From an uncultured Gammaproteobacteria bacterium (GTDB lineage Bacteria > Patescibacteriota > Microgenomatia > Levybacterales > GWA1-39-11), in the NCBI GenBank assembly GCA_964452165.1, contig CAYVKP010000001.1, positions 76,110 to 140,109 on the forward strand: DNA of 64,000 nt, in the 5' to 3' direction. The translations under genes were made by a program, and so were the position numbers. The notes beneath the pieces were generated by a model. The model was not told the origin of the DNA, did no database searches, and worked only from the letters and a program-made list of their open reading frames with translations. Positions 2,960 through 64,000 of the stretch are shown here, in pieces. Each line of letters starts with the position of its first letter. The stretch's first letter is position 1.

Positions 2960-2983
2960 TAATTTTAGATGGCGTCTACTTAG

Positions 2984-3826: not shown

Positions 3827-3950
3827 ACACCAATGATATACGCAGCTTGTAAGTTTGAGTATCGAGGAGAGTAAAAAAATAGTAAGTCTTACTTTTCCTT
3901 AACACGATTCTTCTTTTCAAAGGCTGGTTATTTTGCTATACTTGCTCCAC

Positions 3951-4379: not shown

Positions 4380-4380
4380 T

Positions 4381-4791: not shown

Positions 4792-4800
4792 ACAGTAATC

Positions 4801-5487: not shown

Positions 5488-5577
5488 TAAAGAGAAGATT
5501 TGCAGTCGCGGTCATAAATATCAGGGCAAACCCCCTTGTCCTGTTTGTTATCCGGGATTTTACAAAAAGAAGAAAAA

Positions 5578-6630
5578 CTAGTTTGCTTTTCCTATTTCAA
5601 AAATAGAAAGTAGTCCAACGATTCCATTTTCATAATCTTTTAAATCCTTGGCACGCATCTCCTTCTTAAATTTCTCGTGAGTATTTAAATTGGAGAGAGT
5701 ATAACCTTGGGTGTATGCATCAAAAACCGCCGGATGAATGTAATATTTGCGGCAAGTTGAAGGAAGATTTCTGAGATGTTTTGCAACCTGTTTTACGATA
5801 TCGCTTGTCGTCTTTTTAATTGCTGCTTTGTTATTCTGCAGTCCAAAGCGATCGAGCATTTCTGCGGCCAAAACAGTCCCGGCCCAAGTTCTAAAATCTT
5901 TAGCCGTTATGTCTTCTCCAGCTATCTGCCTTAGATACTCATTAATGTCTTGAGATGTAACCACCTGCATTTGCCCCTCTTCATCTTTGTATTCAAACAA
6001 ATCTTGGCCGGGTAGGTCCTGACATTGTTTTATAATCTTAGCAACACGGCGACTTTTAATCTCTACCTTATGGTAGACTCCGCTTTTTCCCTTAAAAGCA
6101 AACTTTACCTCTCCTCCCCAGATGTCAACGTGACGATTCTTAAGAGTAGTGAGACCATAAGACTTGTTGTCTTCTTCATATTCTTCGTTTCCAACACGAA
6201 TTAACGTATTTTCAAGAAGCCAAACAACTGTTGCCAAAACTTTTTCGCGGGTCAAACCCTTTCTTTCAAGGACATTATCAACGTGGTTGCGAATTTTCGG
6301 TAAAACTTTTGCAAACTCAAGCATATGCTCAAACTTTTTTTGCTGCGAAACTTCTGTCCAAAGAGGATGATACCTATATTGCTTGCGGCCGCGGTCGTCT
6401 ACTCCCGTTGCTTGAAGGTGACCATTTCTATACGGACAAATCCATACGTCGTGCCATGCCGGGGGAATAGCAAGAGAATTAATCTTTTCGATTATATTTT
6501 TATCGGTAATTTTTCCTCCTTGAGTATCAAAATAGTAATAAGTTTCTCCGTTTTTCTTTCTTGTGTAACCGTGGCCTGTGCCCTGCGAGTACCGGAGACT
6601 TGCTTGATCAAGTAATTCTTCTGTGGACAT
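5578..6630 (-). CDS. DNA topoisomerase IB (poxvirus/Deinococcus-type TopIB)
   Basis: ATGVDDRGRKQYRYHPLW, KDFRTWAGT and active-site-region motifs of bacterial TopIB. Start taken at the ATG at 6630 (MSTEELL). The track ORF extends to 6714. Confidence 0.8.
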   Translation of the reverse strand: MSTEELLDQASLRYSQGTGHGYTRKKNGETYYYFDTQGGKITDKNIIEKINSLAIPPAWHDVWICPYRNGHLQATGVDDRGRKQYRYHPLWTEVSQQKKFEHMLEFAKVLPKIRNHVDNVLERKGLTREKVLATVVWLLENTLIRVGNEEYEEDNKSYGLTTLKNRHVDIWGGEVKFAFKGKSGVYHKVEIKSRRVAKIIKQCQDLPGQDLFEYKDEEGQMQVVTSQDINEYLRQIAGEDITAKDFRTWAGTVLAAEMLDRFGLQNNKAAIKKTTSDIVKQVAKHLRNLPSTCRKYYIHPAVFDAYTQGYTLSNLNTHEKFKKEMRAKDLKDYENGIVGLLSIFEIGKAN

Positions 6631-49573: not shown

Positions 49574-52500
49574 TTGCCGCATATGAATGAGAATTTGACA
49601 CCTAACAAACCTGTAGCGTATCCTTTAAATAGGCCTATGGCTGAAAATACAGCAGATAATTTACCCGCAACTCCTCCTACAGAGGTGAAAGGTTCTGATG
49701 AGGAGCAAGTAGTCGTTGTTGAATCAAGGGATAATGTTCAAAACGGCAAGACTGAGGATAGGGGGACCAACGGATCCAAAAAGGACGAGGAAACACGTAC
49801 TCAAAGGGAGACACGACAAGGCAGAAACAAGCCTACTCCTAAAGAGGCTGAGGAAATCCTAGAAACCTATAAAAAGATCTACGAAAGAGAGTTCAAAAAG
49901 AAGTACGAAGACTTAGACATAGAAACAAGGGAGGCTATTGAAAAAAGGATCGAAGAAGGTAAGCCACCTAACCCTATGGGTGGAGCAAACGAACACGAAG
50001 ACCATGATGAAGAACACGAGGAGCATGGTGGCGGAGGAAATGGGCCTAGAAACACTTATGAAAGAGCCAGGGATATTATGCGGGAATCAAAATATGGCGC
50101 TCAATATACAGCCTTTGTTAATGCTCTTAGAAATGGTGATATGCGTTCTGCATCAAGTCTCCATGATGAAGCGGCGCACGAACTATCTACAGAGCTCACC
50201 GCTGTTGAAGAAAGAATAATAGATGCTCAGAATAATCCTGACCCGGCAGATATTGTGAAAAGAAACGACATAACTAACCTTTTAGGTGAAATGGCTGGAA
50301 TAAAAAGAGAAATTACACCTGCTCCCCCGGTCGATAAACTTCACATAAAGGCTGAAGAACTCATAAGCAAAAGAGAAAGAGGAGAAGAGTGGACCGCTCA
50401 TGACAGAGAAGAAGTTATAGAGTACATAGAAGAAATGAATCCGGCCGGGTATCAAGTAGACGAAGGCGATATTGATTTTATTGCAAGAGACGATGAGTTT
50501 TCTGAAAGATATCTTGACCTTCTCTTAAGTTTGCCTGAAAGCCAACCTAGATCTGGTTACCATTTGGGCTTTCACGAAGGAAATAATCTTGAAGCTTTCA
50601 TGCACAAAGTAAAAGAACACGATCCAAAACGCCTTCAAAGATATTCAGATGAGAGAGGAATGCGTCAGAACTTTCACGAGATGCGCCGTTACATGCTTGT
50701 TGGAAATATCCGTGACTTTTCAACTGTGGCAAGAGATATTCCCGATACTTATATACAAGCAGCAACAGATTATGTAGGTGTGAACTCTGTTCAAAGATTT
50801 TATGATACGGTTTTCAAAGAAGCCATGGCAAAAAAACAGACAATCTCGCCTCAAGACTTCAAGCATATAGAAGAAAGACTCGAAAAATTATTCCGAGATG
50901 CTAATGAGTCTGGGGTTTTTAATATTGAACAGAAGGGTGAGGATGGAAATCCTCTCAGAGATGAACATGGAAATATTGCCACCAGGGCACTTCGCGAATG
51001 GGAAATAAATAGAGCAATTAATGTGGGTAGAAACTTCAGCGCAATCAAGCTTAGACTTCCAGAGCTAATATCTGTAGGGGAAATTCCCAGCAACTTTGGA
51101 ACCCCATCGGTCCCTGAAACTTTTGTCTCATTTGACTATGAAAGTGCCGTAAGATTTCTTAATCCATTAAGGTTCTTGGGCTCAAAGTTTGGAATAGGAG
51201 CAGTCAGGGGAGGCCAGGAATATCTTAAAAAACTTTTCATAGAGATTGATGCACAAAAAAATAGCCAAGCTAAATTTACCAAGCTTTTTGGTATTGATCG
51301 CAAGAATTATGAGCGATCAGCCCCCTTTGGTAATACCAGCTTTGACTCGGGCTGGCGTATACCTCAGGCAAACCTTAACGTCTTTAAAATTATGGCAAGA
51401 GTAAGAGACGAGAAAATATATGACGAGGTTGACAATAAAGAAATGATACTTAAAGTTTATGATCCAACACAAGCCGAGCAGGAAGTTGAGGCAGGTTATT
51501 ATATAGATCATCAGACAAGATACATCAGAGAGCTTAGAAAAAGAGGACTTAAAGACCCACAAATAAGCGCACAGTATGATCACAATGCAGCCATAAAACA
51601 AGCCGTCGAGAAATTACCCTTTTATCGAGGATTTTTGGCTTCTTACGGTAATGTTCCTATTGAAGCAAAAGTAGAGGCATGGAAGAAAATTGCCGAAGAT
51701 ATGCCAAACCAAGTTATGATGATTTTAAAGGGTAATGCCAGCTTTGATGCTTTAAAAGCGTCTCAGGGAATGACTGAAGAAAAAATGGAAACCCTTCAAA
51801 GAAAGCTTGCGTTATATCAAGAGCTGAGACTGCAAGCCCAAATGAGAGAAACTAAGCTTCGTGATGATGGTAGTCCAATTGATCCCACAGCCGGTATAAC
51901 CGAAAAAGATCCTAATGACCCCGAGGGTCACAGAAGAATCATCAGAAACGTAACTCTCAATGAAATAATTACCAGCAATCCAATTCATGGGGACAACAGC
52001 TTGTCACCTGACGAATTAAGATTCATTGATGCGATGAAAACGTGGATGGGACACGATATGCAGGAGGGTGGCGGCACCGTCTACAAAAATCTTGCCGAGG
52101 TTAAGTGGCCAATAAACCCTATAAATGAAGACTTTGCATATGAAACCGCTGACTATACCAGAACTGGAGCTGAGGTATTCAGACGCCGAATTGGAGGAGA
52201 TGCAGTAGCGCTTTATCAAGCCGCTGAAGAGGTAATTCCTATCTTGCGAAATCCCAATATGGCGTTTGAGACTTACATTGAGCATATGCAAAAAGCAGCT
52301 GATGCAATAGATACTCCTCATGGATATGAGGCAGCGCAAAACATGCTTTTCACCTTCCACAAGACCAAGCTGGATTTTACAAGAAAAGACAAAATATGGG
52401 AAAGCTTACCCGGAATCGATGAAGCGGCATCATATTTTGGAGTACCGGTTTCTGAGGCTCAGAGATGGTTTGGAAAAAATGGGGCAGCCTATGATACCTT

Positions 52501-52714
52501 CCAGACACGTGCGTTAATAGAGCAGTTGGTAGGTGCAGGTCTTATAAGACGTCACAAGGAGATTGGCGAAGATAAGCCTCAAATTGACAAGTTAAGAAAA
52601 GCGTTAAGAGCCACACTCCCTGACATTTTAGTAAAGAGAATTCCAATAGGGGGCATATTTATTCTTTTGATAATTATCTCGGAGTTTACAAAGAGGGCGC
52701 TTAAAGAAAAATAA
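49574..52714 (+). CDS. giant (1046 aa) mostly alpha-helical hypothetical protein with a His/Glu-rich patch and a C-terminal TM anchor
   Basis: HEDHDEEHEEHGGGGNG; C-terminal IPIGGIFILLIIISEF; no domain recognised. Confidence 0.6.
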   Translation: MPHMNENLTPNKPVAYPLNRPMAENTADNLPATPPTEVKGSDEEQVVVVESRDNVQNGKTEDRGTNGSKKDEETRTQRETRQGRNKPTPKEAEEILETYKKIYEREFKKKYEDLDIETREAIEKRIEEGKPPNPMGGANEHEDHDEEHEEHGGGGNGPRNTYERARDIMRESKYGAQYTAFVNALRNGDMRSASSLHDEAAHELSTELTAVEERIIDAQNNPDPADIVKRNDITNLLGEMAGIKREITPAPPVDKLHIKAEELISKRERGEEWTAHDREEVIEYIEEMNPAGYQVDEGDIDFIARDDEFSERYLDLLLSLPESQPRSGYHLGFHEGNNLEAFMHKVKEHDPKRLQRYSDERGMRQNFHEMRRYMLVGNIRDFSTVARDIPDTYIQAATDYVGVNSVQRFYDTVFKEAMAKKQTISPQDFKHIEERLEKLFRDANESGVFNIEQKGEDGNPLRDEHGNIATRALREWEINRAINVGRNFSAIKLRLPELISVGEIPSNFGTPSVPETFVSFDYESAVRFLNPLRFLGSKFGIGAVRGGQEYLKKLFIEIDAQKNSQAKFTKLFGIDRKNYERSAPFGNTSFDSGWRIPQANLNVFKIMARVRDEKIYDEVDNKEMILKVYDPTQAEQEVEAGYYIDHQTRYIRELRKRGLKDPQISAQYDHNAAIKQAVEKLPFYRGFLASYGNVPIEAKVEAWKKIAEDMPNQVMMILKGNASFDALKASQGMTEEKMETLQRKLALYQELRLQAQMRETKLRDDGSPIDPTAGITEKDPNDPEGHRRIIRNVTLNEIITSNPIHGDNSLSPDELRFIDAMKTWMGHDMQEGGGTVYKNLAEVKWPINPINEDFAYETADYTRTGAEVFRRRIGGDAVALYQAAEEVIPILRNPNMAFETYIEHMQKAADAIDTPHGYEAAQNMLFTFHKTKLDFTRKDKIWESLPGIDEAASYFGVPVSEAQRWFGKNGAAYDTFQTRALIEQLVGAGLIRRHKEIGEDKPQIDKLRKALRATLPDILVKRIPIGGIFILLIIISEFTKRALKEK

Positions 52715-54346
52715 TTATCCCCCAATTACTGAACGGAAGAGACCTCTCCATATTCCAATAGGTTGAGCATGACCACTTTTGTCGTATGTGTATCCAAGTC
52801 CGGCTGTGTAGCCTCTTCCGAATTGTCCAATAATCCCCGGACCTGCCGAAAGAGATCTACCGATACCCGATGAATACTTGAAGTCAGGAGACTTAAGAGC
52901 ATCTTTTACCATGACTGCTGCCTCAGGCGCCATTAATATTATTCCTAGGCCAATTATTGATCCAAAACGCGACGGATCAGTAAGATCTCCAACTAAAGGA
53001 GGGATAAATGGCGTTACTCCACCAGGAGTATGTCCGCTAAAGCCGTTAATAAAAGTTTGCCCTAGAAGAAATAAGGTTATTGTTGCGGGAAAGACAGCAA
53101 GATTTGAGAGCATTCCTCTGAAAAAAGCTCCGAGTCCGGATCTACCCGGAATAAGGCCGCTGGCGATATAAAAAGGGGAGAAAACTACGGTTACCAAGAC
53201 TGAGATGTAGCATTTAATTAGCTGGAACCATATTCGCAGAAGCGCTTGGAAGATAGCAATGATAATTACAATATATGCAATAAGACCGGCTATAAGACCG
53301 ATAAGTTTATTCCCGAGTATTGCTCCACCAACTCCACCAATTGCTCCTCCAATCAGGCTCGCTTTTGTAAAAAATGCGCCCACAAGAGGTAGCGGTATTC
53401 CTTTGCCTATCTGTTGGCCAATCAAACCACCAATAAGTGTACCTATTATTCCACCTAAGACCCTACCCAGTGTTCCATCAAATATAGATGCCGTAATTCC
53501 CGATATGTTTTTTGCGACTCCAAAAGCAATTCCGCTTACTCCCCCAATTCCTCCGGCAGCCCCAAAAGGATTGGTTGAAAGAGAGTTTGAAGGGTCAATT
53601 CCGGCTTGAGAAAAGAGTGACATTATAAGGTAGATTGAGACATACATCATGTCTATTAGAAATCCTGCAATTGCATACGAGAAAGTTACAAAAATAATAG
53701 CCATTATAATTTTTGGTATCTGATTTTGAAGTGTCATGACAGTTCTTGGATCAATTTTAATTCTGAACATTATTCCAAGTCCCACGATTACAAAAAGAAT
53801 TACAAAAAGAAGATATGTAACATTTCTAAAAACCTGCCAGAGCTTGAGAGTAGGCAGGAGAGAATTAAAACCTATGCTTCCCTCTCTTTGATTTTTTGCT
53901 TGTCCTGCCGCAGCCGGAGTATCTCCTGTGTTTTGTGCATACGTCCTTTTTGCTATGCCAAAATTTGATGCCACATCAGCAACATAATCGTGAGTCGATA
54001 TTGGAATGTAAAAAGTTTCAGCGATTAAATTACCTACAAGTCCTATTGCGCCCCCACCACCTTCAACAAAACCTATCTTTTTAGTTTTAGGGTCTATTCC
54101 AAGACATTTTCCGTCGGGATTTATGGGGTCAATGCCACTTAATTGGCAGGAAATTGCCGCTCCTACCTCTATAAAAACGCTTTGAGTATATGTATGAAAG
54201 TCCTGAGGAACGTTAGGATTTGTATTTAGATAATTTTGATTGGGCTGCGTTGGTGTTGTACTTTGAGCATATATTTTAGGAACGAACAGAAGTGCGAGCA
54301 AAAGAAAAAAGAGAATTGATAAAATCTTAAGCTTCATGGACAGCAC
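52715..54346 (-). CDS. VirB6/TrbL-like polytopic membrane protein with signal peptide and Gly-rich TM helices
   Basis: Signal peptide, then at least 6 TM with GxxxG-rich helices (GGIIGTLIGGLIGQQIGKGIP ...). Size and topology match VirB6/TrbL. Confidence 0.55.
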   Translation of the reverse strand: MLSMKLKILSILFFLLLALLFVPKIYAQSTTPTQPNQNYLNTNPNVPQDFHTYTQSVFIEVGAAISCQLSGIDPINPDGKCLGIDPKTKKIGFVEGGGGAIGLVGNLIAETFYIPISTHDYVADVASNFGIAKRTYAQNTGDTPAAAGQAKNQREGSIGFNSLLPTLKLWQVFRNVTYLLFVILFVIVGLGIMFRIKIDPRTVMTLQNQIPKIIMAIIFVTFSYAIAGFLIDMMYVSIYLIMSLFSQAGIDPSNSLSTNPFGAAGGIGGVSGIAFGVAKNISGITASIFDGTLGRVLGGIIGTLIGGLIGQQIGKGIPLPLVGAFFTKASLIGGAIGGVGGAILGNKLIGLIAGLIAYIVIIIAIFQALLRIWFQLIKCYISVLVTVVFSPFYIASGLIPGRSGLGAFFRGMLSNLAVFPATITLFLLGQTFINGFSGHTPGGVTPFIPPLVGDLTDPSRFGSIIGLGIILMAPEAAVMVKDALKSPDFKYSSGIGRSLSAGPGIIGQFGRGYTAGLGYTYDKSGHAQPIGIWRGLFRSVIGG

Positions 54347-54461: not shown

Positions 54462-55022
54462 ATGATGAAGAAATTTTCAATTGTTTTCGCATTGCTCGTT
54501 GTTTTCTCCGTTTTATTGCCTAGGGTTATCTTTGCGGACGAAGCCAAAAATGATGAGGATTTGGTAGCAACAACTCCTGCAAAAATAGAATACAACCTTC
54601 CGTATCCCGGGATACTTCCCGACAACCCATTATATTTCTTAAAAACCGCGAGAGATAAGCTGGTTGCACTGTTAATAAGTGATCCTCTTAAAAAAGCGGA
54701 ATTTAATTTACTGACATCTGACAAGAGAGTAGCATCTGCTCAAGTTATGGCAGATCGCAGAAAATCTGAAATGGCTGTTTCAGTTTTTTCAAAAAGCAAT
54801 AATTATTTTGAAAGTGCAATTAGCAACATGGAACAAGCTAAAAAATCCGGAGAGAATGTTGATACAGTTTTACATACTATGCAAACTGCCGTTAAAAAGC
54901 ATTATGAGATCTTGGAGGGGGTAGAAAAGAAGGCGGATAAAAAGTTTTCTTCTCAGCTTCAGCAAGAAGAAGACAGGCTTAAAAAATTCGAAAATACTGT
55001 AACTAAGCTCGACCATAATTAA
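54462..55022 (+). CDS. DUF5667-domain secreted protein
   Basis: YPGILPDNPLYFLKTARDKL matches the DUF5667 hallmark; signal peptide. Confidence 0.65.
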   Translation: MMKKFSIVFALLVVFSVLLPRVIFADEAKNDEDLVATTPAKIEYNLPYPGILPDNPLYFLKTARDKLVALLISDPLKKAEFNLLTSDKRVASAQVMADRRKSEMAVSVFSKSNNYFESAISNMEQAKKSGENVDTVLHTMQTAVKKHYEILEGVEKKADKKFSSQLQQEEDRLKKFENTVTKLDHN

Positions 55023-55204
55023 GAGATAAACTGTCCACTTAGATCATTTTTTGTATACAGCTTTTGGCGAACCTTCTCTGCTATTTTTTCGAATACTTCT
55101 GTCCTGGTTTATAAAATAAATTCTGAAGCTAGAAAATGACCTGTTATATTTTGATATAAAAGTTGATAGTTGACCGACGCGATATAGTGCTTTACTATTA
55201 ATTT

Positions 55205-55294
55205 AACACTAGATATGGGGCGAAGCTTAAGCGAAAGCTGAAGGTTAACCCGCCCGCAAAAAGCGGGAATGAAGCAACTAACATATAGATGTTT
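55205..55294 (+). promoter_or_regulatory. candidate NrdR-box palindromes upstream of nrdR-nrdJ
   Basis: aACACTAGATATGggg (55205-55220) and aACATATAGATGTTt (55280-55294) resemble the ACACwAtATaTwGTGT NrdR box. Spacing is atypical. Confidence 0.3.
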
Positions 55295-55349
55295 CATTAT
55301 ATTTAGGGGTAATAGCACTTTTTAAATTTGTCCAAATTTTTTCTAAATT

Positions 55350-55799
55350 ATGCAATGCCCTTATTGTAAAAGTACTGATTCAGAAGTCGTCGAGACGAGA
55401 GTCTCCGAGGACGGAACAAATATAAGACGTCGAAGAAATTGCCTTTCTTGCGGAAAAAGATACACCACATACGAGCGGATAGAAAACGTTACATTAATAG
55501 TCCAAAAAAAAGACGGGAAACGCGAGCAATTTGACCGGGAGAAACTACGAGTTGGAATTGCAAGGGCTTGCGAAAAGACTACGGTATCAGCAGAAGATAT
55601 TAATAATATAGTAGATGAGATAGAACGGGAATTGATTGGCGGAGACTCAGTTGAAATAGAAGCAAAAAAAATTGGACAAATGGTAGCAGCCAAGCTTAAG
55701 AAAATCGACAAAATTGCATATATAAGATTTGCAAGCGTTTTTAAAAGATTTGTTGATGTTGAAGATTTTGAAAAAGAAGTAAAAAGATTATTAAAATAA
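55350..55799 (+). CDS. nrdR: transcriptional repressor NrdR
   Basis: MQCPYCKSTDSEVVETR...NCLSCGKRYTTYE zinc ribbon plus ATP-cone. Confidence 0.9.
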   Translation: MQCPYCKSTDSEVVETRVSEDGTNIRRRRNCLSCGKRYTTYERIENVTLIVQKKDGKREQFDREKLRVGIARACEKTTVSAEDINNIVDEIERELIGGDSVEIEAKKIGQMVAAKLKKIDKIAYIRFASVFKRFVDVEDFEKEVKRLLK

Positions 55800-55801
55800 A
55801 A

Positions 55802-58336
55802 ATGAAATTAGACGGAATAAGAAATAAAGTATTTTTAGACAGGTACTCCTTAAAAGACGTAGAGGGAAATCCCCTCGAGTCAACTCCCGAGGAGATGTGG
55901 AGAAGAGTTGCCAAGGGAATTGCCGGTGTTGAGAAAAAGGCAGATCGAAAGCGCTGGGAAGACAAGTTCTATAAAGTAATGGAGGACTTTAAATTCTTGC
56001 CGGGTGGTCGAATCTTTGCAGGGGCCGGAACGGGTTTTGATGTAACCTACTTTAATTGTTTTGTTATTCCAAATCCTCCCGACTCAAGACAGGGGATCAT
56101 GGAGAATTTGACTCAAATGATTGAAATTATGGCCCATGGTGGGGGTGTGGGACTTAATCTTTCGGGACTTCGCCCGAGAGGAGCAAGGGTAAAGAAAGTT
56201 AATGGTTTTTCCTCAGGCCCCATGAATTGGGCAGAGCTTTATTCGCTAGCTACAAAAGATATTGTTCAGCAGGGTGGTTCGCGCCGCGGCGCACTCATGC
56301 TTATGATTCATGATTGGCACCCGGACGTTGAAGAGTTTATCACTGTCAAGCAGGATCTCACCAAAATTAACGGGGCAAATCTTTCCGTATGTGTTTCAGA
56401 CGAATTTATGGAAGCGGTAAAAAAAGACGCTGACTGGGACTTGATGTATCCGGATCTCGATGATAAGAAGTATGACAAAAATTGGGATGGCGATATCCAT
56501 GACTGGAAGAAAAAAGGCGGTAAAGTCAGGGTTTACAAAACAGTAAAAGCATCATATCTCTGGAATCTAATTTGCGAAGCTGCATGGAGAAGTGCAGAGC
56601 CGGGTTTGCATTTCTTAGATCGCTCAAACAAAAGATCAAATACATGGTATTTTGAAAAACTTCTTGCAACAAACCCCTGCGGAGAACAGCCACTTGGTGC
56701 TTGGGCAGTTTGTAATTTGGGAGCGATGAATCTTTCAGCCTATGTAAAAGACGATGATCTTACTTCCGATAAGGCAGGTTGGTTTGACTATGAATCATTC
56801 GGGAAAGATGTGAAGATTGCCATGAGGTTCCTCGACAACGTTATTGATGATACGCATTATTTCTTCAAAGAGAATGAAAAAGTGGCAAAAGACATTAGAA
56901 GAACAGGCCTTGGTATTATGGGGATTGCTGACACCTTTATTAAAATGAAAGTTAGATACGGATCTAGCGAATCAGAAGAGGTTTCTAAAAAGATTTTTGA
57001 AACACTTCGTAACAACGCCTACATTGCCTCATCAGATATCGCGAAAGAAAAAGGATCTTTCCCCAAGTACGATCGTATCAAATATCAAAAAGGCTATCAT
57101 ATTAAAGCGTTGCCAAAAGCAATTCGCCAGAGAATTTTTGATCAAGGGATCCGCAATGCTGTTCTTCTGACAATTGCGCCAACCGGTACAACCAGTCTTA
57201 TCGCCGGTGTTTCATCAGGGGTCGAGCCGGTTTATGAATTTGAATACTCTCACAACGGGAGACTCGGGAAGCAAATGGTATATCATGACCTGTATGGAAA
57301 ATGGAAAGAGGCACATCCAGAAGATGAGAAGCCTGACTATTTTGTCGGAGCAAATGATCTAACCCCTGAGGATCACGTAAAGATTCAGGCAATCGCGCAA
57401 GCATATATCGACTCATCAATCTCAAAAACTGTCAATGCTCCAAATAGTCATACGGTTGAGGACGTAAAGAGCTTATATATGAAGTCTTACGACATGGGTC
57501 TAAAGGGAGTTACATACTTCAGGGACGGTTCACGCCAGGGTGTATTGCAGAGGGAAGAAAAGAAAGAGGAGCTGCCGGTTGCGGTGCCGAAAACGCCTGC
57601 GATTTTAAAAAGACCATCTATCATGTATGGGTTAACTTATAAAACACCAACTCCACTCGGAGACGCCTTTATCACTTTGAATAATGATGAGAATGGAGAT
57701 CCGTTTGAAGCATTTGTAACAATTGGAAAATCGGGAAGTGATGTTGCCGCAATGACTGATGCGCTTGGGCGAATGATCTCGCTACTCCTGAGAATTCAAT
57801 CTCCTGTTACATCGCGAGAGAGAGTAAGACAAATTGTTGCCCAGCTTTCAGGAATCGGAGGAGTTAGAAGTGTAGGATTTGGACCTAAGCAAGTTAGGTC
57901 TGTCCCGGACGCCATCGCCAAAATATTGGCCGAACAATTCGGGTTTGCTGTAAATGGAGTCGTCAAGGATCTACAAAAGAAAGAAGCACTTATGAGTAGC
58001 AATGGTATACAGGTTACAAATGGCAATGGAAAGTCTTTGAATGGTAATGGAGTCGCTCTTACCAACGGAAATTCTAATGGAAACGGTATTTCAAACGGCA
58101 ATGGATTACTTGCAAACGGTCACAGTAACGGAGCGGCACAAGTACAAAACATTCAAATAAATGTTGCAACTCAGGTCTCAACACCTGACGCGTCGACAAC
58201 AGTTATGGAGCAATTAAGTCTTAATTCAGAACCCACTCACAACGCCTTTGATCTGTGTCCATCGTGTGGAGGAGCAACCCTTGCACATGAAGAGGGTTGC
58301 AAAAAATGCTATAGCTGTGGTTATAGCGAATGTTAG
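55802..58336 (+). CDS. nrdJ: class II (adenosylcobalamin-dependent) ribonucleotide reductase NrdJ with an Asn/Gly-repeat insertion and a C-terminal zinc ribbon
   Basis: FLDRYSLKD start, catalytic NPCGEQPL, radical-site and B12-region motifs, C-terminal CPSCGG...CKKCYSCGY. Confidence 0.9.
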   Translation: MKLDGIRNKVFLDRYSLKDVEGNPLESTPEEMWRRVAKGIAGVEKKADRKRWEDKFYKVMEDFKFLPGGRIFAGAGTGFDVTYFNCFVIPNPPDSRQGIMENLTQMIEIMAHGGGVGLNLSGLRPRGARVKKVNGFSSGPMNWAELYSLATKDIVQQGGSRRGALMLMIHDWHPDVEEFITVKQDLTKINGANLSVCVSDEFMEAVKKDADWDLMYPDLDDKKYDKNWDGDIHDWKKKGGKVRVYKTVKASYLWNLICEAAWRSAEPGLHFLDRSNKRSNTWYFEKLLATNPCGEQPLGAWAVCNLGAMNLSAYVKDDDLTSDKAGWFDYESFGKDVKIAMRFLDNVIDDTHYFFKENEKVAKDIRRTGLGIMGIADTFIKMKVRYGSSESEEVSKKIFETLRNNAYIASSDIAKEKGSFPKYDRIKYQKGYHIKALPKAIRQRIFDQGIRNAVLLTIAPTGTTSLIAGVSSGVEPVYEFEYSHNGRLGKQMVYHDLYGKWKEAHPEDEKPDYFVGANDLTPEDHVKIQAIAQAYIDSSISKTVNAPNSHTVEDVKSLYMKSYDMGLKGVTYFRDGSRQGVLQREEKKEELPVAVPKTPAILKRPSIMYGLTYKTPTPLGDAFITLNNDENGDPFEAFVTIGKSGSDVAAMTDALGRMISLLLRIQSPVTSRERVRQIVAQLSGIGGVRSVGFGPKQVRSVPDAIAKILAEQFGFAVNGVVKDLQKKEALMSSNGIQVTNGNGKSLNGNGVALTNGNSNGNGISNGNGLLANGHSNGAAQVQNIQINVATQVSTPDASTTVMEQLSLNSEPTHNAFDLCPSCGGATLAHEEGCKKCYSCGYSEC

Positions 58337-58359
58337 TGACCCTATAATAAATTTGCCTG

Positions 58360-58388
58360 TTGACAGTTTTTAGTCTTCGATTTATTAT
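58360..58388 (+). promoter_or_regulatory. sigma-70 promoter TTGACA-17-TATTAT for the B12-binding-protein operon
   Basis: TTGACA at 58360-58365; TATTAT at 58383-58388. Confidence 0.5.
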
Positions 58389-58394
58389 AGTCAA

Positions 58395-58516
58395 ACTTTA
58401 GTTTACATAGGTAATCACCGTGAAAGTCGGTGACTGTGCCGCAACTGTTAAAGTCAGAAAACTATGTTTACATCAAATCCCGAGCAGGAATTTTTTTGTT
58501 CTTTCGAACAACGAAT
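58395..58516 (+). ncRNA. structured 5' leader with weak, partial resemblance to a cobalamin riboswitch
   Basis: GTGAAA-capped hairpin tcaccg-tgaaagt-cggtga, gccgcaactgt (like GCCACTG), aagtcagaaaac (B12-box-like AGYCMG...). Sits between the promoter and the terminator, upstream of B12-binding-protein genes. Confidence 0.35.
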
Positions 58517-58517
58517 T

Positions 58518-58543
58518 AACTCCTCGGGAAGAGGAGTTTTTTT
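58518..58543 (+). terminator. intrinsic terminator/attenuator hairpin immediately before the ATG of 58544
   Basis: 8-bp stem aactcctc/gaggagtt, loop gggaa, then TTTTTTT. The 3' arm contains the only SD-like GAGGAG. Confidence 0.55.
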
Positions 58544-59173
58544 ATGTTCGAGCAAATAAAAATAGTTTTTAAAAAGTATTTAGGATCGCCCCTTATTGCG
58601 CTTGCGATCGTTTTCTTTATCCTGGCAGGAGCAACGGTTCTTTTTTCCGGTAAGTCTACAAAGACACTAGGCGTAATAACGGAAAATAAACAAGCGGCAA
58701 GAGTTAAGTCTGTTAAATCAACAGCGACACCCACTCAAGAGGCTCAGGAAAGTTCGAATACTTCGACAAATTCCTACCAACAGCCAACAACGGCCTCGTC
58801 AACTCCCACCCCGTATAAAACCGAGACTACAACCACAACAAATTCTTCCAATAACTCGAATGGATCCTCTCAAACACAAGGCAGGGTAAAACTTTCAATC
58901 AACGGTTCATCCACCGGAGAAGTAAATGTTGGTGCGGGACAAAATCAGTGCGATGTTCTAAACGATGCTCTTGCGCAGGGAAAAATTTCTCAGCTTACTA
59001 TGCGTTATGAATCAAGTCTTGGGACTTACGGCGTCTACAAAATTAACAATACTGGCAAAGATAATTCTATTTGGTGGACTTATAAAGTAAACGGAAACTC
59101 GCCTGACAAGGGGTGCAGTTACCTAGGAGTAAATAATGGTGACAGTGTCGAATGGAATTATATAGGAAGCTAA
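58544..59173 (+). CDS. membrane-anchored Ser/Thr-rich protein with a C-terminal DUF4430-like (transcobalamin/intrinsic-factor beta-domain-like) module
   Basis: N-terminal TM helix, ST-rich linker, C-terminus WWTYKVNGNSPDKGCSYLGVNNGDSVEWNY. Confidence 0.55.
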   Translation: MFEQIKIVFKKYLGSPLIALAIVFFILAGATVLFSGKSTKTLGVITENKQAARVKSVKSTATPTQEAQESSNTSTNSYQQPTTASSTPTPYKTETTTTTNSSNNSNGSSQTQGRVKLSINGSSTGEVNVGAGQNQCDVLNDALAQGKISQLTMRYESSLGTYGVYKINNTGKDNSIWWTYKVNGNSPDKGCSYLGVNNGDSVEWNYIGS

Positions 59174-59174
59174 T

Positions 59175-60905
59175 ATGAAATTTATTAAATCAACATTGCT
59201 ATTATTCTTATTCGCGACAGTCTTTTTATTCGTGACCTCAAAAGTTTTTGCAGCAGGAGTGACCGCCGAGGTCAGAATTGTAGGTTCATCAAGAACTATT
59301 TTCTACAATAACGTAACAATCGACGGCGGTTGCACGGTGACAGATGTTGATGGTGGGGTACATACATACACTGACCCGCTCGCAATTTGTGCACTCGATA
59401 AAGCATCAAAAGATGGCGGTTTTTCCTACAAAATCAAAGATAGTTCTTTCGGAATATACCTGACGGGAATTGCGGAAGACGACGGCGCAGCGGATTTTTC
59501 AACTTATTGGCTTTACGATATTAATGGAGCAGGAGCCCAAGTTGGAATTTCAAGCTTAACTCTAAATAACAATGATAAGCTTTTCTTACATTTTTATCCT
59601 GATGCCGACCCTAATGCTCGTTCGTCAAATGATGGAATTGCGTACCTGCGTAGCCAGCAGGCAGCAGACGGGCACATTAACGGATTTGGTGGAGTAAGCC
59701 AGTGGGCGGCGATGGCATTTGCAGCAAAAGGAATTGATATAAGTGGTGTTTCAAAAGGCGGCGCGAGTCTTAAAAGTTATCTTGAGGCCAATTTGCCCAC
59801 TGCTTGTTCTTCTGCAACAGATTGGGAGAAAGATATACTCGCGATAGTTGATACCGGCGCAAATCCTTACAACTTTGGGGGATTAAATTTTGTTGGAACT
59901 CTCAAGTCTTCTGCTTATTACAACGGCACACAAATAGGAGATAGCTCGGGGCTCAACGACGACTTTTTTGGAGTAATGGCTCTCATTGCCGCTGGTGTCT
60001 CAAACTCGGATTCCGTAATAAAAAATAGTGTTTCGTACATAATTTCAAAACAAAATTCGGACGGAGGATGGGGTTTTTCCACAAGTAGTAAATCTGACAG
60101 TAATGATACTGCAGCAGCGCTTCACGCCTTGTCTTCAGCAAAAAATTACGGAGTAACTCATGCAAGTCTTGATAACGCAATAAGCCAAGCCAAGACTTAT
60201 TTGCTTTCACTTCAAGCTTCAGACGGTGGATTTAAATACGATGGTTCTTCGACTGATCCCGATGGATCATCAACTGCTTGGGATTTGGTTGGGCTAAATG
60301 CTGCGGGCATGAATGATGCCGCAACCAGTGCAAAAAAATGGCTCACAAACAATCAGAATAAGGACGGCGGATTTTATTATCAGGCCTCATTTGGAAGTGA
60401 TACGTACACAACAGCACATGCGGTGATAGGGCTTTCGGGTAAGAATTGGATAATTAAGAATTTTGATGCCGGTTCAAATTCAAGCACGGGTACAACATTA
60501 TCGTCCTGTATTACTCCTACACCAACAAGTTCTGTTACTCCAACTCAAACACCAAGCCCAACAAATACTCCCACACCAACACCTACAAGCTCAACTACTA
60601 ATAATAATTCGACTAATAATACTACCAATACAACCAATAATTATTTCGACAGACCAACCCCGGGACTCTCAAGCGTAGTCAACCGAACTCTTTCTGAAAA
60701 TAAGGTAGTTGATAATCCCGGTGAAACAAAAGAACAAGTTTTGGGTGTACAAACCGATAACTCCGGAAGTAATTTACCCAAAACAGTTCAGGTTGCCGGC
60801 ATTAATAATACGCCCAATGTTTTTGCACAATTGTTCTTTGCATTAGGTATTGCCGTCCTCTGTTTTCACATAGGATCACTTTATCAAAAGAGGAAATTAG
60901 CCTAG
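59175..60905 (+). CDS. surface protein: signal peptide, DUF4430-like domain, alpha/alpha-toroid (prenyltransferase/terpene-cyclase-like) repeats, Pro/Thr linker, C-terminal TM anchor; a bacterial intrinsic-factor/transcobalamin-like candidate B12 binder
   Basis: TYWLYDINGAGAQVGISSL (DUF4430). Repeats QQAADGHINGFGG, KQNSDGGWGF, LQASDGGFKY, NQNKDGGFYY. TPTPTSSVTPTQTPSPT linker; C-terminal hydrophobic anchor. Confidence 0.6.
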   Translation: MKFIKSTLLLFLFATVFLFVTSKVFAAGVTAEVRIVGSSRTIFYNNVTIDGGCTVTDVDGGVHTYTDPLAICALDKASKDGGFSYKIKDSSFGIYLTGIAEDDGAADFSTYWLYDINGAGAQVGISSLTLNNNDKLFLHFYPDADPNARSSNDGIAYLRSQQAADGHINGFGGVSQWAAMAFAAKGIDISGVSKGGASLKSYLEANLPTACSSATDWEKDILAIVDTGANPYNFGGLNFVGTLKSSAYYNGTQIGDSSGLNDDFFGVMALIAAGVSNSDSVIKNSVSYIISKQNSDGGWGFSTSSKSDSNDTAAALHALSSAKNYGVTHASLDNAISQAKTYLLSLQASDGGFKYDGSSTDPDGSSTAWDLVGLNAAGMNDAATSAKKWLTNNQNKDGGFYYQASFGSDTYTTAHAVIGLSGKNWIIKNFDAGSNSSTGTTLSSCITPTPTSSVTPTQTPSPTNTPTPTPTSSTTNNNSTNNTTNTTNNYFDRPTPGLSSVVNRTLSENKVVDNPGETKEQVLGVQTDNSGSNLPKTVQVAGINNTPNVFAQLFFALGIAVLCFHIGSLYQKRKLA

Positions 60906-60940
60906 AAAATCAATCTAACTTATGATACGATAAAAAAATA

Positions 60941-61459
60941 ATGAACAAGCATTTTGACAAATTTTTCCCACTTCTGATTATTTCTATTGGGGTTTTGATG
61001 CGTCTTGTTCCTCACTCTCCAAACTTTACGCCAATAGCGGCGACCGCGTTATTCGGTGGAACATATTTATCCAAAAAATATGCTTTTATAATTCCAGTTG
61101 CAGCCATGCTTGTATCAGATTATTTTATAGGTTTTCATCACACTATGGTTTATGTCTATGGATCTTTCATTTTGACGGGAGTGATTGGGATTTGGCTTCG
61201 CGAACACAAGAGTGTTCGTAATGTAATTGGCGCATCCTTGCTCTCATCGGTCCTTTTCTTCCTAATTACAAATTTTGGGGTTTGGGTAAACGGCGCATAC
61301 GCGCGTGATATCTCGGGACTTTGGCAAAGCTATATGATGGGAATCCCATTCTTCAGAAATACGGTTGCCGGAGACCTTTTCTACACGGGTGCGTTTTTCT
61401 TATCGTTTGAGGCTGCCAAAAGCTTAATCTATCAATTAAAGCCCGCACGCGTAAAATAA
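60941..61459 (+). CDS. small 5-6 TM membrane protein, candidate vitamin/B12 permease (ECF-S/BtuM-like by context)
   Basis: 172 aa, hydrophobic helices, conserved-looking PHSPNFTP segment. It lies between the B12 binders and the adenosyltransferase. Confidence 0.45.
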   Translation: MNKHFDKFFPLLIISIGVLMRLVPHSPNFTPIAATALFGGTYLSKKYAFIIPVAAMLVSDYFIGFHHTMVYVYGSFILTGVIGIWLREHKSVRNVIGASLLSSVLFFLITNFGVWVNGAYARDISGLWQSYMMGIPFFRNTVAGDLFYTGAFFLSFEAAKSLIYQLKPARVK

Positions 61460-62025
61460 TGCCTATCTACACGAGAACCGGGGATCGCGGTAAGACACGG
61501 CTTGGGACGGGTAAGAAAGTCTCAAAAGATTCCTGCAACGTTGAATCCTACGGAACCATAGATGAATTAAATGCACTTTTAGGCGTGGTTTATGCAGAAA
61601 TTGAAATAGGGAAAAGCCCGTATAGAAAGCGTTTACTTAATTTACTTCTTCTTATTCAAAGCGACCTTTTTTGCATAGGAGCGTATTTGGCAAATCCGGG
61701 TCTATCAAATATGATGGATCATTTTCCCGAGAGGATAAAAAGTTTTGAACGTGAGATAGACTTTATGATGGGAAAAGCCCCTCCTCTTACCAACTTTGTT
61801 TTTCCACAAGGGGGTAGAGTAGGTTCACTTTTTCAGCTGGCAAGAACCGTTTGTCGTCGAGCGGAACGTACGGTTGTTACGCACGCAAAAAAGGAAAAAA
61901 TTGACGAGCGAGTGTTAATCTATACAAACAGACTCTCAGATCTAATGCTTGCAGCCGCTCGTTTCACTGCCCACATTGATAAAAAGAGAGAAATTGTTTG
62001 GAGCAGAGAAAAATACCTCAAATAG
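61459..62025 (+). CDS. PduO-type ATP:cob(I)alamin adenosyltransferase
   Basis: MPIYTRTGDRGKTRL...VESYGTIDELNALLG, classic PduO/MMAB N-terminus. Confidence 0.85.
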   Translation: MPIYTRTGDRGKTRLGTGKKVSKDSCNVESYGTIDELNALLGVVYAEIEIGKSPYRKRLLNLLLLIQSDLFCIGAYLANPGLSNMMDHFPERIKSFEREIDFMMGKAPPLTNFVFPQGGRVGSLFQLARTVCRRAERTVVTHAKKEKIDERVLIYTNRLSDLMLAAARFTAHIDKKREIVWSREKYLK

Positions 62026-62147
62026 CCTCATCAACTCATAGTAAAACAAGCGAAATGTGGATAACTTTGTATAACTCTCAGACCTTAGTCCTATAGTTAG
62101 TCAACCGAAAGGGGTTAAAATTCCATATTATTGCTTATAATTAATGT

Positions 62148-62840
62148 ATGGCTCTGATTGATCTCATATTTCCCAAGAAATGTATTAATTGCGCAAAATT
62201 TGGGGAATTTATATGTGCAGATTGTTTTTCAAGGATTAAGTTTAATGACGCCTTGGAATGTCCGGCGTGTTTGCGCCCGGCCCTCAATGGTATGACTCAC
62301 CCGGCTTGTATTACCGCCCAAGGGCTAGACGGGGCCATTTCAGTAGTTGTTTATAATGGTGTTGTTAAGAAGTTGATATACCAATTCAAATATAATCCAC
62401 ATTTATCAAAGTTAGCCTCAACTATTTCCGAGCTTATGACTGAGGGTTTGTCTCAAAATGAGAGCTTTTACGCATTTTCTGAAAAATACCAACCCGTTTT
62501 GGTTCCAATTCCATTAAGCACAAAGCGATTGCGTGAGCGCGGATATAATCACGCAGAATTATTGAGTAATTATGTCGCACAATATTTTAAGCTTGGTTCT
62601 GACAACAAAATATTAACTAGATCTAAAGAAACCAAGCCTCAGTTTAGATTAAATCGCGAAGAACGAAAGAAAAATGTTGAAGGCGCGTTCGATGTGGCTA
62701 AAAGTTCTAAAGTTCCAAGTTCAATAATTTTGATTGATGATATTGCAACAAGTTTTGCAACCTTAAAGGAGGCAGCCAAAATCTTGAAGCGAAAAGGAGC
62801 CAGGAAGGTTCTGGCCGTAACGTTTGCGAGAGAAATTTAG
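62148..62840 (+). CDS. comF: ComF/GntX-family phosphoribosyltransferase-domain protein
   Basis: N-terminal Cys4 zinc finger (CINCAKF...CADCF...CPAC) and C-terminal PRTase motif ILIDDIATSFATL. Confidence 0.8.
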   Translation: MALIDLIFPKKCINCAKFGEFICADCFSRIKFNDALECPACLRPALNGMTHPACITAQGLDGAISVVVYNGVVKKLIYQFKYNPHLSKLASTISELMTEGLSQNESFYAFSEKYQPVLVPIPLSTKRLRERGYNHAELLSNYVAQYFKLGSDNKILTRSKETKPQFRLNREERKKNVEGAFDVAKSSKVPSSIILIDDIATSFATLKEAAKILKRKGARKVLAVTFAREI

Positions 62841-63199
62841 TATGCGCTAGGTGAGGAGTTTGTAGTTGGGTAAGCTGGATTGTACTTCTTCATACACTCT
62901 TTCATGCAAATCATTTTATATTGACTAGTGACACACTCTTTGGCGCAAACACTTTCTTGAGCTTTCTGAAGTTGAGCCGCAGGATTAATTGCTATTAGAC
63001 CAATAATGCTGAAGAAGAAAAAGATCAGTAGAATCATCGGCAAGCTTATCACGAGCTTTACCCATTTTGGCCAACTGGTCCAGACCCACATTAGAATTAT
63101 TCCGGCGGGATATGCGAGTAAAAGCGTGAGAACTGTGACTATTAGCTTTGTGTCTTCCGATACGCTCTGTGATTGTGTCTTTGACTTTCTTTTTGCCAT
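62837..63199 (-). CDS. hypothetical 2-TM membrane protein with a Cys-rich C-terminus
   Basis: 120-aa ORF; TM helices; CAKECVTSQYKMICMKECMKKY. Confidence 0.45.
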   Translation of the reverse strand: MAKRKSKTQSQSVSEDTKLIVTVLTLLLAYPAGIILMWVWTSWPKWVKLVISLPMILLIFFFFSIIGLIAINPAAQLQKAQESVCAKECVTSQYKMICMKECMKKYNPAYPTTNSSPSAY

Positions 63200-63235
63200 G
63201 CAATTAGTATTTCAAACTAAATTCACCGTGTCAAC

Positions 63236-63805
63236 TTATTTGATTATTAAAACTCTATTTACATCTTCCAATAGTCTTTCGAATTTAGTATACCCTGCGG
63301 CTTGATTAAAGTGTCCGGCATTGGAAATGAAAGTTAATGGGACTCCCAAGTGTCGTGCGAGTTGTTGGCCATTTTCAAGCGCAACATAAGGGTCATTGTC
63401 TGAGTGAAAAACTTCAAAATAACCCGAGGACTTCCTTATTTTGTCCCAATCAAAATCAAAATTTCCGCTAAACTTTCTATCGTTTTCAATATTTTTTATT
63501 GGTTCGATACCAATTGGTGTTCCTACTAAGAAAGCTGCTTTTATGGGCACTTCAAGACGTTCCAATAGTCTCAAAGTAAAAAGGCCTCCCAAGCTATGCC
63601 CGATTAAAATGGTTTTTTCATCAATATCTTTGATTTGTGGATCAACTACTTCAAGCCAGGCCTCGAGCGATTGACCATCTGGGGTGGGAAACTGTGGAAC
63701 GGATACTCTGTGCCCTTTATTTTCAAGTTGCGATTTCATCCACGGAAACCAATTCTCTTCAGGGTATCCGGCATTTCCGTGGAATATAAAAACTTCAGAT
63801 CTCAT
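63236..63805 (-). CDS. RBBP9/YdeN-like serine hydrolase (alpha/beta fold)
   Basis: GHSLGG nucleophile elbow; size and pattern of PF06821. Confidence 0.7.
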   Translation of the reverse strand: MRSEVFIFHGNAGYPEENWFPWMKSQLENKGHRVSVPQFPTPDGQSLEAWLEVVDPQIKDIDEKTILIGHSLGGLFTLRLLERLEVPIKAAFLVGTPIGIEPIKNIENDRKFSGNFDFDWDKIRKSSGYFEVFHSDNDPYVALENGQQLARHLGVPLTFISNAGHFNQAAGYTKFERLLEDVNRVLIIK

Positions 63806-64000
63806 TCGCCGATTATACCAAAAAGCCTCCCTTAGCAGGAGGCTATTATGTGGAGATGGGGGGCTATGAGCCCCCGTCCAAAATTACAAAATAAAAACAT
63901 CTACAAGCTTATTTTGTCTTTGATTGTCGTTACAACATACTCCGACAAAAAGGATTTGTTGTAACCAAGGTTATATTTTTTCGAATAAAGCTCCAACCAA

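Follow-up and report, generated by a model that had tools for sequence, protein, structure and literature searches.

A cobalamin-riboswitch-controlled gene cluster of likely corrinoid salvage function in a Patescibacteria bacterium

What function may be assigned to a bacterial surface protein in which both domain types of the animal vitamin B12 carriers seem to be combined? The question arises from a 576-residue product (ORF576) encoded on the plus strand at positions 59175-60905 of a 64,000-nucleotide stretch of contig CAYVKP010000001.1, hereafter the window. An earlier note on this DNA had viewed ORF576 and the product of the preceding open reading frame (ORF; 58544-59173, ORF209) as two tethered B12 traps next to an enzyme dependent on adenosylcobalamin (AdoCbl), and both ORFs exist exactly as claimed. 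Considered with its surroundings, the region 58360-62025 is likely to be a corrinoid salvage operon under the control of a cobalamin riboswitch, in a bacterium of the Patescibacteria (candidate phyla radiation, CPR) that is probably small and host-dependent. This reading is built on the genes, their domains, the riboswitch, the folds and a synteny conserved across several bacterial groups, all directly established. The B12 function of the operon is well supported, by evidence separate from the reasoning of the earlier note, and B12 binding by its surface proteins is predicted.

The riboswitch makes the link with B12 firmer than the earlier note had claimed, since it lies directly upstream of the two ORFs and has equivalents ahead of their relatives. 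The Rfam covariance model of the class II cobalamin aptamer (AdoCbl-II, RF01689) matches positions 58393-58469 of the plus strand over its full length (model positions 1-81), with 50.0 bits for a gathering score of 36.5 (E-value 3.9e-9 over the whole window, 1.8e-11 locally). The aptamer occupies part of the 207 nt that separate nrdJ from ORF209, directly downstream of nrdR-nrdJ. Its core is conserved in four related loci (L003, L005, L014 and L008 in our numbering), one stem showing pairing-preserving changes on both strands. Upstream of it, a sigma-70-like promoter (58360-58388, plus strand; TTGACA-17 nt-TATTAT, 11 of 12 matches) is the best site in the interval 55000-63300, where such sites are no more numerous than in shuffled sequence, so that it represents a consensus match only. 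Downstream of the aptamer, the expression platform (58518-58543, plus strand) comprises a GC-rich hairpin and a T-run ending at the ATG. The terminator-like site itself (58518-58538) has 8 pairs and the tail TTTTTATG. GAGGAG, the Shine-Dalgarno sequence, falls in the 3′ arm of the hairpin, which also forms when 58389-58552 is folded at minimum free energy (z = -3.3). From these features, it looks like a terminator that would also sequester the ribosome-binding site. The genes that follow are tightly packed, with 1 nt between ORF209 and ORF576 and 35 nt between ORF576 and the gene of a DUF6580 protein, the stop codon of which is overlapped by the start of pduO. The placement of promoter, riboswitch and hairpin, together with this packing, argues for a single transcription unit containing the promoter, the riboswitch, ORF209, ORF576, DUF6580 and pduO.

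ORF576 begins with a signal peptide (59175-59252, residues 1-26, plus strand) recognized by its hydropathy and by equivalent N-termini in homologues; cleavage would take place within VFAAG, between KVFA and AG. The beta domain that follows, of the DUF4430/SLBB beta-grasp type (59253-59600, residues 27-142, plus strand), carries a DUF4430 match (PF14478) at residues 78-137 with 32.5 bits for a cutoff of 23.8 (E-value 1.2e-7). It displays a conserved Cys53/Cys72 pair and a FSTYWxYDxNG motif, and the peptide TYWLYDINGAGAQVGIS corresponds to residues 110-126. An (alpha/alpha)6 toroid of the terpene-cyclase/prenyltransferase type comes next (59601-60464, residues 143-430, plus strand) and matches SQHop_cyclase_C (PF13243, E-value 1.7e-12) and Prenyltrans (PF00432, 27.2 bits for a cutoff of 26.5). 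The earlier note had counted at least four repeats, which is slightly generous: three clear Q-x-x-DGG[FW] repeats are found (residues 293-301, 347-355 and 394-402), and a fourth is degenerate (QQAADGHI). By composition and hydropathy, the protein ends with a stalk (60471-60809, residues 433-545; 23% Thr, 15% Asn, 14% Ser, 11% Pro) and a C-terminal membrane anchor (60819-60884, residues ~549-570), both on the plus strand, followed by a basic tail (QKRKLA). The signal peptide, the Pro/Thr-containing stalk and the C-terminal anchor described previously are all recovered in this way. In close homologues the Pro/Thr stalk is kept, and most of them have no transmembrane (TM) segment and end in a long basic helix-like tail, so that the mode of tethering appears to vary within the family. 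As a separate observation, an LPKTV motif of ORF576 (60774-60788, residues 534-538), located about 11 residues ahead of the C-terminal hydrophobic segment, resembles a sortase sorting signal (LPXTG).

An AlphaFold2 (AF2) model of residues 27-432, calculated from a 54-sequence alignment, has a pLDDT of 94.9 and a pTM of 0.84. It shows a strand-rich N-terminal domain, then 12 helices forming a complete (alpha/alpha)6 toroid. When the profile of the beta domain is compared with the Protein Data Bank (PDB), the matches are 3u7z (E-value 0.015), haptocorrin residues 357-430 (E-value 0.071) and TC2 residues 359-423 (E-value 1). These scores are weak, yet the right domain seems to be retrieved, in agreement with Pfam, the beta domains of haptocorrin and TC2 being among the top 5 of 177,635 PDB sequences. 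The toroid superposes on the alpha domain of the carriers, also an (alpha/alpha)6 fold. This resemblance of the model appears real but not specific, because many glycoside-hydrolase toroids score equally.

Is the toroid an enzyme or a binding scaffold? Against the PDB, the profile of the toroid family retrieves squalene-hopene cyclase (SHC) with an E-value of 2e-38, and no chain of intrinsic factor (IF), transcobalamin (TC) or haptocorrin (HC) stands among the 60 matches listed. A single-sequence PDB search with ORF576 gives cyclases only, and repeats of the QW type are present on its alpha/alpha toroid. Comparison with PF01122 (Cobalamin_bind), a check suggested in the earlier note, yields no match at E <= 0.1, and membership in this family is ruled out. 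One may imagine a surface enzyme, be it a monodomain class II terpene cyclase, a prenyltransferase-like or a corrinoid-modifying one, with the DUF4430 domain merely delivering or holding its substrate. Besides the SHC match, such a role would be suggested by the alignment of the family motif sDvDDTAAAL with the catalytic DVDDTA of SHC and by the Asp kept at the central motif position in 17 of the 18 close homologues. ORF576 itself, however, has DSNDTA (residues 308-313, D308-S-N310-D311), with an Asn at the general-acid position. Across 54 relatives, this position is occupied by Asp in 35 cases and by Asn in 19, and the next one by Asp (34), Thr (8), Ser (8) or Met (4), that is, by a residue other than Asp in 20. 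Interchange of Asp and Asn keeps hydrogen bonding but not acid catalysis. The motif would in part be a feature of the repeat scaffold, because the profile segment containing it also aligns with PDLDTT, a further SHC repeat near residue 80.

Two hallmarks of class II terpene cyclases, an intact DxDD and a location in the cytoplasm or at the membrane face, are lacking in ORF576, which is predicted to be exported and held on the outer side of the membrane, remote from isoprenoid diphosphate substrates. Moreover, control by a B12 riboswitch and the fusion of toroids to vitamin S-components, described below, would give a cyclase no rationale. The Asp/Asn interchange at the acid position and the extracytoplasmic location argue for a binding scaffold rather than a cyclase. 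A terpene-cyclase enzyme was rejected on the grounds of this location, of the B12 context and of a DxDD motif that is degenerate, and a surface enzyme of any of the above kinds appears very improbable. The sequence of the toroid is of the cyclase type, but its motif is not intact. By its domains, ORF576 fits the bacterial class of SLBB+toroid proteins, outside PF01122 and distinct from a catalytically intact terpene cyclase.

The preceding gene, ORF209 (58544-59173, plus strand), encodes a stand-alone DUF4430/SLBB protein resembling the beta domain of transcobalamin and predicted, from hydropathy and composition, to be membrane-anchored. Residues 7-39 are hydrophobic and include its TM anchor (~58586-58651); a Thr/Ser-rich stalk (58661-58879; 25% Thr and 18% Ser) comes next, then a C-terminal DUF4430 domain (58880-59170; PF14478, 35.8 bits for a cutoff of 23.8, E-value 1.1e-8). 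A single-sequence PDB search with ORF209 gave nothing meaningful. In all seven loci having the ORF576-type layout (L001-L006 and L009), the homologue of ORF576 is directly preceded by one of ORF209. With a beta domain alone, ORF209 would be half a carrier, and the description of the two proteins as high-affinity traps is putative.

The next gene (60941-61459, plus strand) encodes a membrane protein of the DUF6580 family (PF20221, E-value 5.8e-53; PF12822 is reached weakly, E-value 0.0087), a putative corrinoid transporter resembling the S-components of energy-coupling factor (ECF) transporters. Its AF2 model (pLDDT 92.9, pTM 0.86) is a small six-helix membrane protein. With this model, most of the top Foldseek matches, and all of those with a probability above 0.5, are S-components: FolT, BtuM, RibU, PanT and ThiT, with probabilities up to 1.0, TM-scores of 0.5-0.7 and E-values of 0.08-3. 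The best TM-score (0.70/0.69) is obtained with BtuM bound to hydroxycobalamin (8ovv). The only PDB sequence match of the DUF6580 profile is marginal (6fnp_A, E-value 0.31); this 182-residue membrane-protein chain of the ECF-CbrT entry is taken to be CbrT, the S-component for vitamin B12. Altogether, the model and the context suggest that DUF6580 is S-component-like and that its substrate is probably a corrinoid. More than 6,000 relatives were found in the protein search, and no paper on the family in the literature searched. DUF6580 genes adjoin DUF4430 genes in L002-L005, L008, L009, L013, L014 and L016-L018. An ECF module was looked for in the window, and the candidate was rejected: the sole ABC ATPase encoded in the 64 kb belongs to an ABC-2 exporter.

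Genes that would use the imported corrinoid stand at both ends of the unit. Downstream, pduO (61459-62025, plus strand) encodes a PduO-type ATP:cob(I)alamin adenosyltransferase (TIGR00636, 161 bits for a cutoff of 108; PF01923, E-value 3.5e-48). Upstream, nrdJ (55802-58336, plus strand) encodes the class II AdoCbl-dependent ribonucleotide reductase (RNR) (TIGR02504, 578 bits for a cutoff of 400; PF02867, E-value 4.7e-122; a TSCPD domain is also matched), likely the consumer of the cofactor. The AdoCbl-dependent enzyme announced next door is therefore well identified. Ahead of nrdJ, nrdR (55350-55799, plus strand) encodes the regulator of ribonucleotide reductase genes (TIGR00244, 185.8 bits; PF22811 and ATP-cone) and belongs to the upstream context, outside the riboswitch unit.

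From these elements, the following mechanism may be proposed. At low intracellular B12, the class II riboswitch would permit transcription and translation of the four packed genes. ORF209, with its lone DUF4430/SLBB domain, and ORF576, with its beta domain fused to a toroid, would be displayed outside the cell on flexible Ser/Thr/Pro-rich stalks. They would capture corrinoids in the manner of intrinsic factor and transcobalamin, the ligand being held between the beta-grasp domain and the face of the toroid. The corrinoid would then be handed to DUF6580, the six-helix S-component-like protein, for passage through the membrane. DUF6580 would be energised by an ECF ATPase module encoded elsewhere, or would act alone as BtuM does. 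Finally, PduO would adenosylate the cofactor for the NrdJ encoded directly upstream. What we infer in this scheme is that the ligand is bound, that it is sandwiched as described, that DUF6580 receives it from the surface proteins, and how its passage is energised. The presence of the riboswitch and of the S-component-like DUF6580 points to an uptake operon rather than to surface traps alone.

A bolder combination may also be envisaged. B12 uptake in bacteria as extremely small as these would need no ECF ATPase module at all, and a solitary BtuM-like DUF6580 would be fed directly by a stalk-tethered, permuted transcobalamin-like receptor, the sandwich being closed in trans by ORF209. Such closure is conceivable because the beta domain of ORF576 appears rigidly fused to its own toroid. 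If true, the two proteins would make up a bacterial "intrinsic factor" in heterodimeric form, and would be a living model for the bacterial source from which the animal B12 carriers are proposed to derive. We regard this combination as rather doubtful.

The salvage operon reading can be compared with related loci. The close-relative set comprises 11 loci from genome contigs, found with 18 close sequences and compared by tblastn. Cobalamin-clan riboswitches of three Rfam families lie upstream in related loci. They stand on the same strand and above the Rfam cutoff in L003, L005, L008, L010, L011, L012, L014, L015, L016 and L018, and below the cutoff in L002, L004 and L013 (about 42 bits for 50) and in L009 (27 bits for 36.5). 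Elements of the RF01689 type score 36.8-55.3 bits in L002, L003, L005, L008, L014 and L016-L018. The loci with riboswitches come from Patescibacteria, Tissierellales, Clostridiaceae and two metagenome contigs. The order nrdR-nrdJ-DUF4430-DUF6580-pduO is found in L002, L003 and L016-L018. In L002 and L003, nrdR-nrdJ precede the cluster; L005 has them close by but on the opposite strand, and its riboswitch governs the ORF209/ORF576 pair only.

The arrangement of the two domains also varies. The transcobalamin-like order, toroid then DUF4430, occurs in L007, L008 and L013. In L013, nrdJ is accompanied by a CobA/BtuR-type adenosyltransferase, which takes the place of PduO in the same context, by a toroid-DUF4430 protein, by a lone DUF4430 protein and by DUF6580. 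One CPR locus (L014) has a split arrangement, with DUF4430, a toroid-only protein and DUF6580. In other lineages, toroid homologues are fused to ECF S-components (PF12822, PF07155, PF20221). Three loci have such a fusion, L012, L015 and one on the P0114 contig, and in each of them two ABC ATPase genes stand beside it; L012 and L015 also have a separate DUF4430 gene, and L015 and the P0114 contig have a CbiQ gene. These "Rosetta stone" fusions, the conserved synteny, the riboswitches and a prediction published in 2007 (Burroughs et al., 2007; PMC1796856) all support the assignment of the operon to corrinoid salvage.

Three other CPR genomes (L016-L018) have DUF5667, nrdR, nrdJ, DUF4430, DUF6580 and pduO and no toroid protein. 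Because these genomes manage with a lone DUF4430 gene, ORF576 would be dispensable for the core system. This raises the possibility that the tethered binders mainly hoard or store B12, by competitive sequestration or as a buffer, uptake proceeding through ORF209 and DUF6580 without obligatory participation of ORF576. ORF576 would then be an add-on, as L016-L018 suggest, and L001 and L006, in which the sequence examined has ORF209 and ORF576 but no transporter, point in the same direction. However, in the window and in L002, L003, L004 and L009, ORF576 is located between ORF209 and DUF6580 inside the riboswitch-controlled unit, and the S-component-toroid fusions argue for direct hand-off. Induction at B12 scarcity would also suit acquisition better than storage. 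We consider a storage role unlikely and, because some CPR relatives are devoid of the toroid protein, we favor a salvage system in which a minimal set of DUF4430 and DUF6580 has probably been supplemented with ORF576 for higher affinity or specificity.

Apart from the dispensability of ORF576, several observations weigh against corrinoid salvage as proposed here. The Rfam scan found no riboswitch in L001, L006 and L007. The 64-kb window, which is part of a contig of about 650 kb, contains no gene for an ECF ATPase or T component. In the model of ORF576, only about 3 residues separate the last strand (residues 108-116 in the trimmed numbering) from the first helix (120-134). Neither a binding study nor transport data for any bacterial SLBB+toroid protein were found in the literature searched. 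Finally, the sole homologous split system studied experimentally, the L. sakei operon Lsa1836-1840, is linked to heme and not to B12 (Verplaetse et al., bioRxiv 10.1101/864751). According to the available text of that preprint, the operon encodes an S component, fused ATPases, a T component, and TC-beta-like and TC-alpha-like proteins, its implication in heme uptake comes from mutants and docking, and hand-off from the soluble binder to the S-component is proposed. By analogy with Lsa1840/Lsa1839, the surface proteins of the window might capture heme or another tetrapyrrole, and a reviewer of the 2007 paper did warn that this clade may bind diverse ligands (PMC1796856). Against this idea, the operon is under a cobalamin riboswitch and between nrdJ and pduO, a context kept across phyla, and no heme-related genes were seen among the neighbours scanned. 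Heme capture therefore seems highly unlikely, and corrinoids are preferred as the ligands.

What does the locus add? The strategy can hardly be called unusual, as had been supposed: the combination of SLBB and toroid, the paired SLBB gene and a predicted B12 role were published in 2007 (PMC1796856), and the same gene order is found in Lactobacillales around the characterised CbrT (PMC5997447). The arrangement is widespread: a B12 salvage cluster that was already known, and the transporter of which has been characterised in Lactobacillus, is present in the window in its Patescibacteria version. Current understanding is not overturned. The useful increments are the probable identity of DUF6580 as a corrinoid S-component, which gives this Pfam family a probable substrate, and class II riboswitch control in the CPR. 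In the literature searched, no paper linked Patescibacteria to B12-dependent ribonucleotide reductase, or to a riboswitch together with cobalamin and ribonucleotide reductase. A "hypothetical" block that recurs in Patescibacteria, made of DUF4430 proteins, a "prenyltransferase/squalene oxidase repeat" protein and DUF6580, gains an annotation as B12 salvage feeding a class II RNR. DNA precursor synthesis in these organisms with reduced genomes would thereby depend on the corrinoids of their neighbours. Furthermore, the compact ectodomain of ORF576, of 400 residues and with a high-confidence model, would lend itself well to testing what was predicted in 2007, and also the proposal that intrinsic factor and transcobalamin are of bacterial origin.

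Several additional features of these loci deserve mention. In two CPR loci, a second AdoCbl-II riboswitch occurs just after pduO (L002 12746-12823, L017 7031-7107) and precedes an ORF (L002 12912-14594, 560 aa; L017 7134-8231, 365 aa). The 560-aa ORF has no Pfam match, and the two products share a Cys-rich C-terminal stretch, GTCVxCxN...LGPCxxCxxCD. They may represent a further B12-regulated gene family in Patescibacteria. Pairwise BLASTP of post-pduO ORFs revealed no significant similarity between L002 and L018 or between L017 and L018, and the window has no counterpart of the L002 and L017 ORFs. In L017, there is no intergenic gap ahead of the DUF4430 gene, the riboswitch being found after pduO instead. 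The nrdJ orthologue of this locus (2179-5592, complete CPR genome CP066685.1) encodes 1,137 aa, including an intein with a LAGLIDADG endonuclease domain (PF14890, PF14528). In Tissierellales and Clostridiaceae, cobalamin riboswitches (RF00174, > 110 bits) precede genes of giant surface proteins (L010 6713-12322 and 12319-14781; L011 5450-13969). The toroid-bearing products have 1,869 aa (L010) and 2,839 aa (L011); the latter contains three DUF4430 domains with FIVAR, BspA-type LRR and SLH domains, and in L010 the following ORF carries the DUF4430 and SLH domains. The 1,869-aa protein, a distant relative, has one toroid that reaches PF01122 (31.2 bits for a cutoff of 25).

In the window itself, the C-terminal part of NrdJ (57900-58336, residues ~700-844) has a long Asn/Gly-rich low-complexity insert (NGNGKSLNGNGVALTNGNSNGNG...) ahead of a terminal Cys-rich zinc-ribbon-like motif (CPSCGG...CKKCYSCGYSEC). 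Directly upstream of nrdR, a DUF5667 gene (54462-55022) encodes 186 aa with a signal peptide, and the order DUF5667-nrdR-nrdJ is also that of L016, L017 and L018. Farther upstream, Pfam gives nothing at E <= 0.01 for two large ORFs, one of 1,046 aa on the plus strand (49574-52714) and one of 543 aa on the minus strand (52715-54346). The product of the latter is rich in Gly, has many hydrophobic segments and starts like a signal peptide, which makes a membrane or surface protein specific to the CPR probable. On the other side, pduO is followed by comF. The 3′ part of a tmRNA (RF00023, 63 bits) at 63848-64000 on the minus strand is cut by the end of the window, and a full tmRNA lies downstream of comF at the equivalent position of L003, which indicates extended synteny with that genome. 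The window has one tRNA gene (1965-2036, plus strand).

Four kinds of known systems can be set beside this operon, in addition to the CbrT cluster. The first is the class described by Burroughs, Balaji, Iyer and Aravind (2007, Biol Direct 2:4; PMC1796856), who defined the SLBB superfamily. In the consulted parts of that paper, bacterial transcobalamin-like fusions of a beta-grasp domain and an alpha/alpha toroid, in either order and with signal peptides, are reported together with another, paralogous SLBB gene of the same operon and with CbiO/CbiQ genes nearby. B12 scavenging is predicted there for organisms that need but do not make B12, and a bacterial origin of the animal B12 carriers is proposed. 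ORF576 resembles this class by its signal peptide, its surface tethering and its SLBB domain fused to a toroid, the latter being C-terminal as in the Bacillus example; ORF209 corresponds to the second paralogous SLBB gene. The differences lie in the lineage, Patescibacteria instead of Firmicutes, and in transport, the CbiO/CbiQ ECF genes giving way to a DUF6580 S-component-like gene without an ECF module in the 64 kb. Riboswitch control and the nrdJ and pduO neighbours are features of the window that do not appear in those parts of the 2007 text.

Intrinsic factor, transcobalamin and haptocorrin (PF01122 and DUF4430; PDB 2PMV, 2BB6 and 4KKJ) also combine an (alpha/alpha)6 toroid with a DUF4430 beta-grasp domain, and the beta profile of ORF576 aligns to haptocorrin 357-430, including the YW...G...G...G(D/E) segment. 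The carriers have the alpha domain first, then the beta domain on a flexible tether, whereas ORF576 has the beta domain first and a linker of about 3 residues. Unlike theirs, its toroid has no PF01122 match and is of the terpene-cyclase sequence type. The carriers are soluble; ORF576 would be membrane-tethered on its stalk, with cobalamin binding as a prediction.

As in L. sakei Lsa1836-1840, TC-alpha/beta-like extracytoplasmic proteins are encoded beside an S-component, and a split form is also seen in the CPR locus L014. The L. sakei operon is associated with heme and has its own ATPase and T genes, and the accessible text of the preprint mentions no link with B12 enzymes. In the window, the alpha and beta domains are fused, and the B12 riboswitch, nrdJ and pduO are present.

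BtuM (Rempel et al., 2018; PMC6072759; PDB 8OVV) is a solitary S-component-like cobalamin transporter that needs the cobalt-ligating Cys80. The DUF6580 model shares its fold, with the TM-scores given above, and DUF6580, like BtuM, has no ECF module encoded close by. DUF6580 has no significant sequence similarity to BtuM, which is found mainly in Proteobacteria, alongside BtuB.

The closest parallel in gene order is the nrdJ-cbrS-cbrT-pduO cluster, which reportedly goes back to work by Rodionov and colleagues in 2009. Within this cluster, cbrT of L. delbrueckii encodes a nanomolar S-component for B12 and cobinamide, the structure of which is available (PDB 6FNP) (Santos et al., 2018, eLife 7:e35828; PMC5997447). 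CbrT-like loci of our set (L019-L021, Lactobacillales-like) contain a class II RNR gene, one or two DUF4430 genes, an S-component gene and pduO. Because DUF4430 genes hold the cbrS position in these metagenomic relatives, cbrS would be a DUF4430 gene, and ORF209 stands in the cbrS position of the Lactobacillus clusters. The window has the same order, with a class II RNR, DUF4430 genes, a small S-component and PduO, and two tandem DUF4430 genes also occur in some CbrT-like loci. The ECF module with which CbrT works is a shared one; the 64 kb here encode none. The S-component seems to differ as well: CbrT is of the PF12822/PF07155 type, whereas that of the window is a DUF6580 protein with the marginal similarity noted above. 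Finally, unlike in the nrdJ-cbrS-cbrT-pduO cluster, the second DUF4430 protein of the Patescibacteria version carries a toroid.

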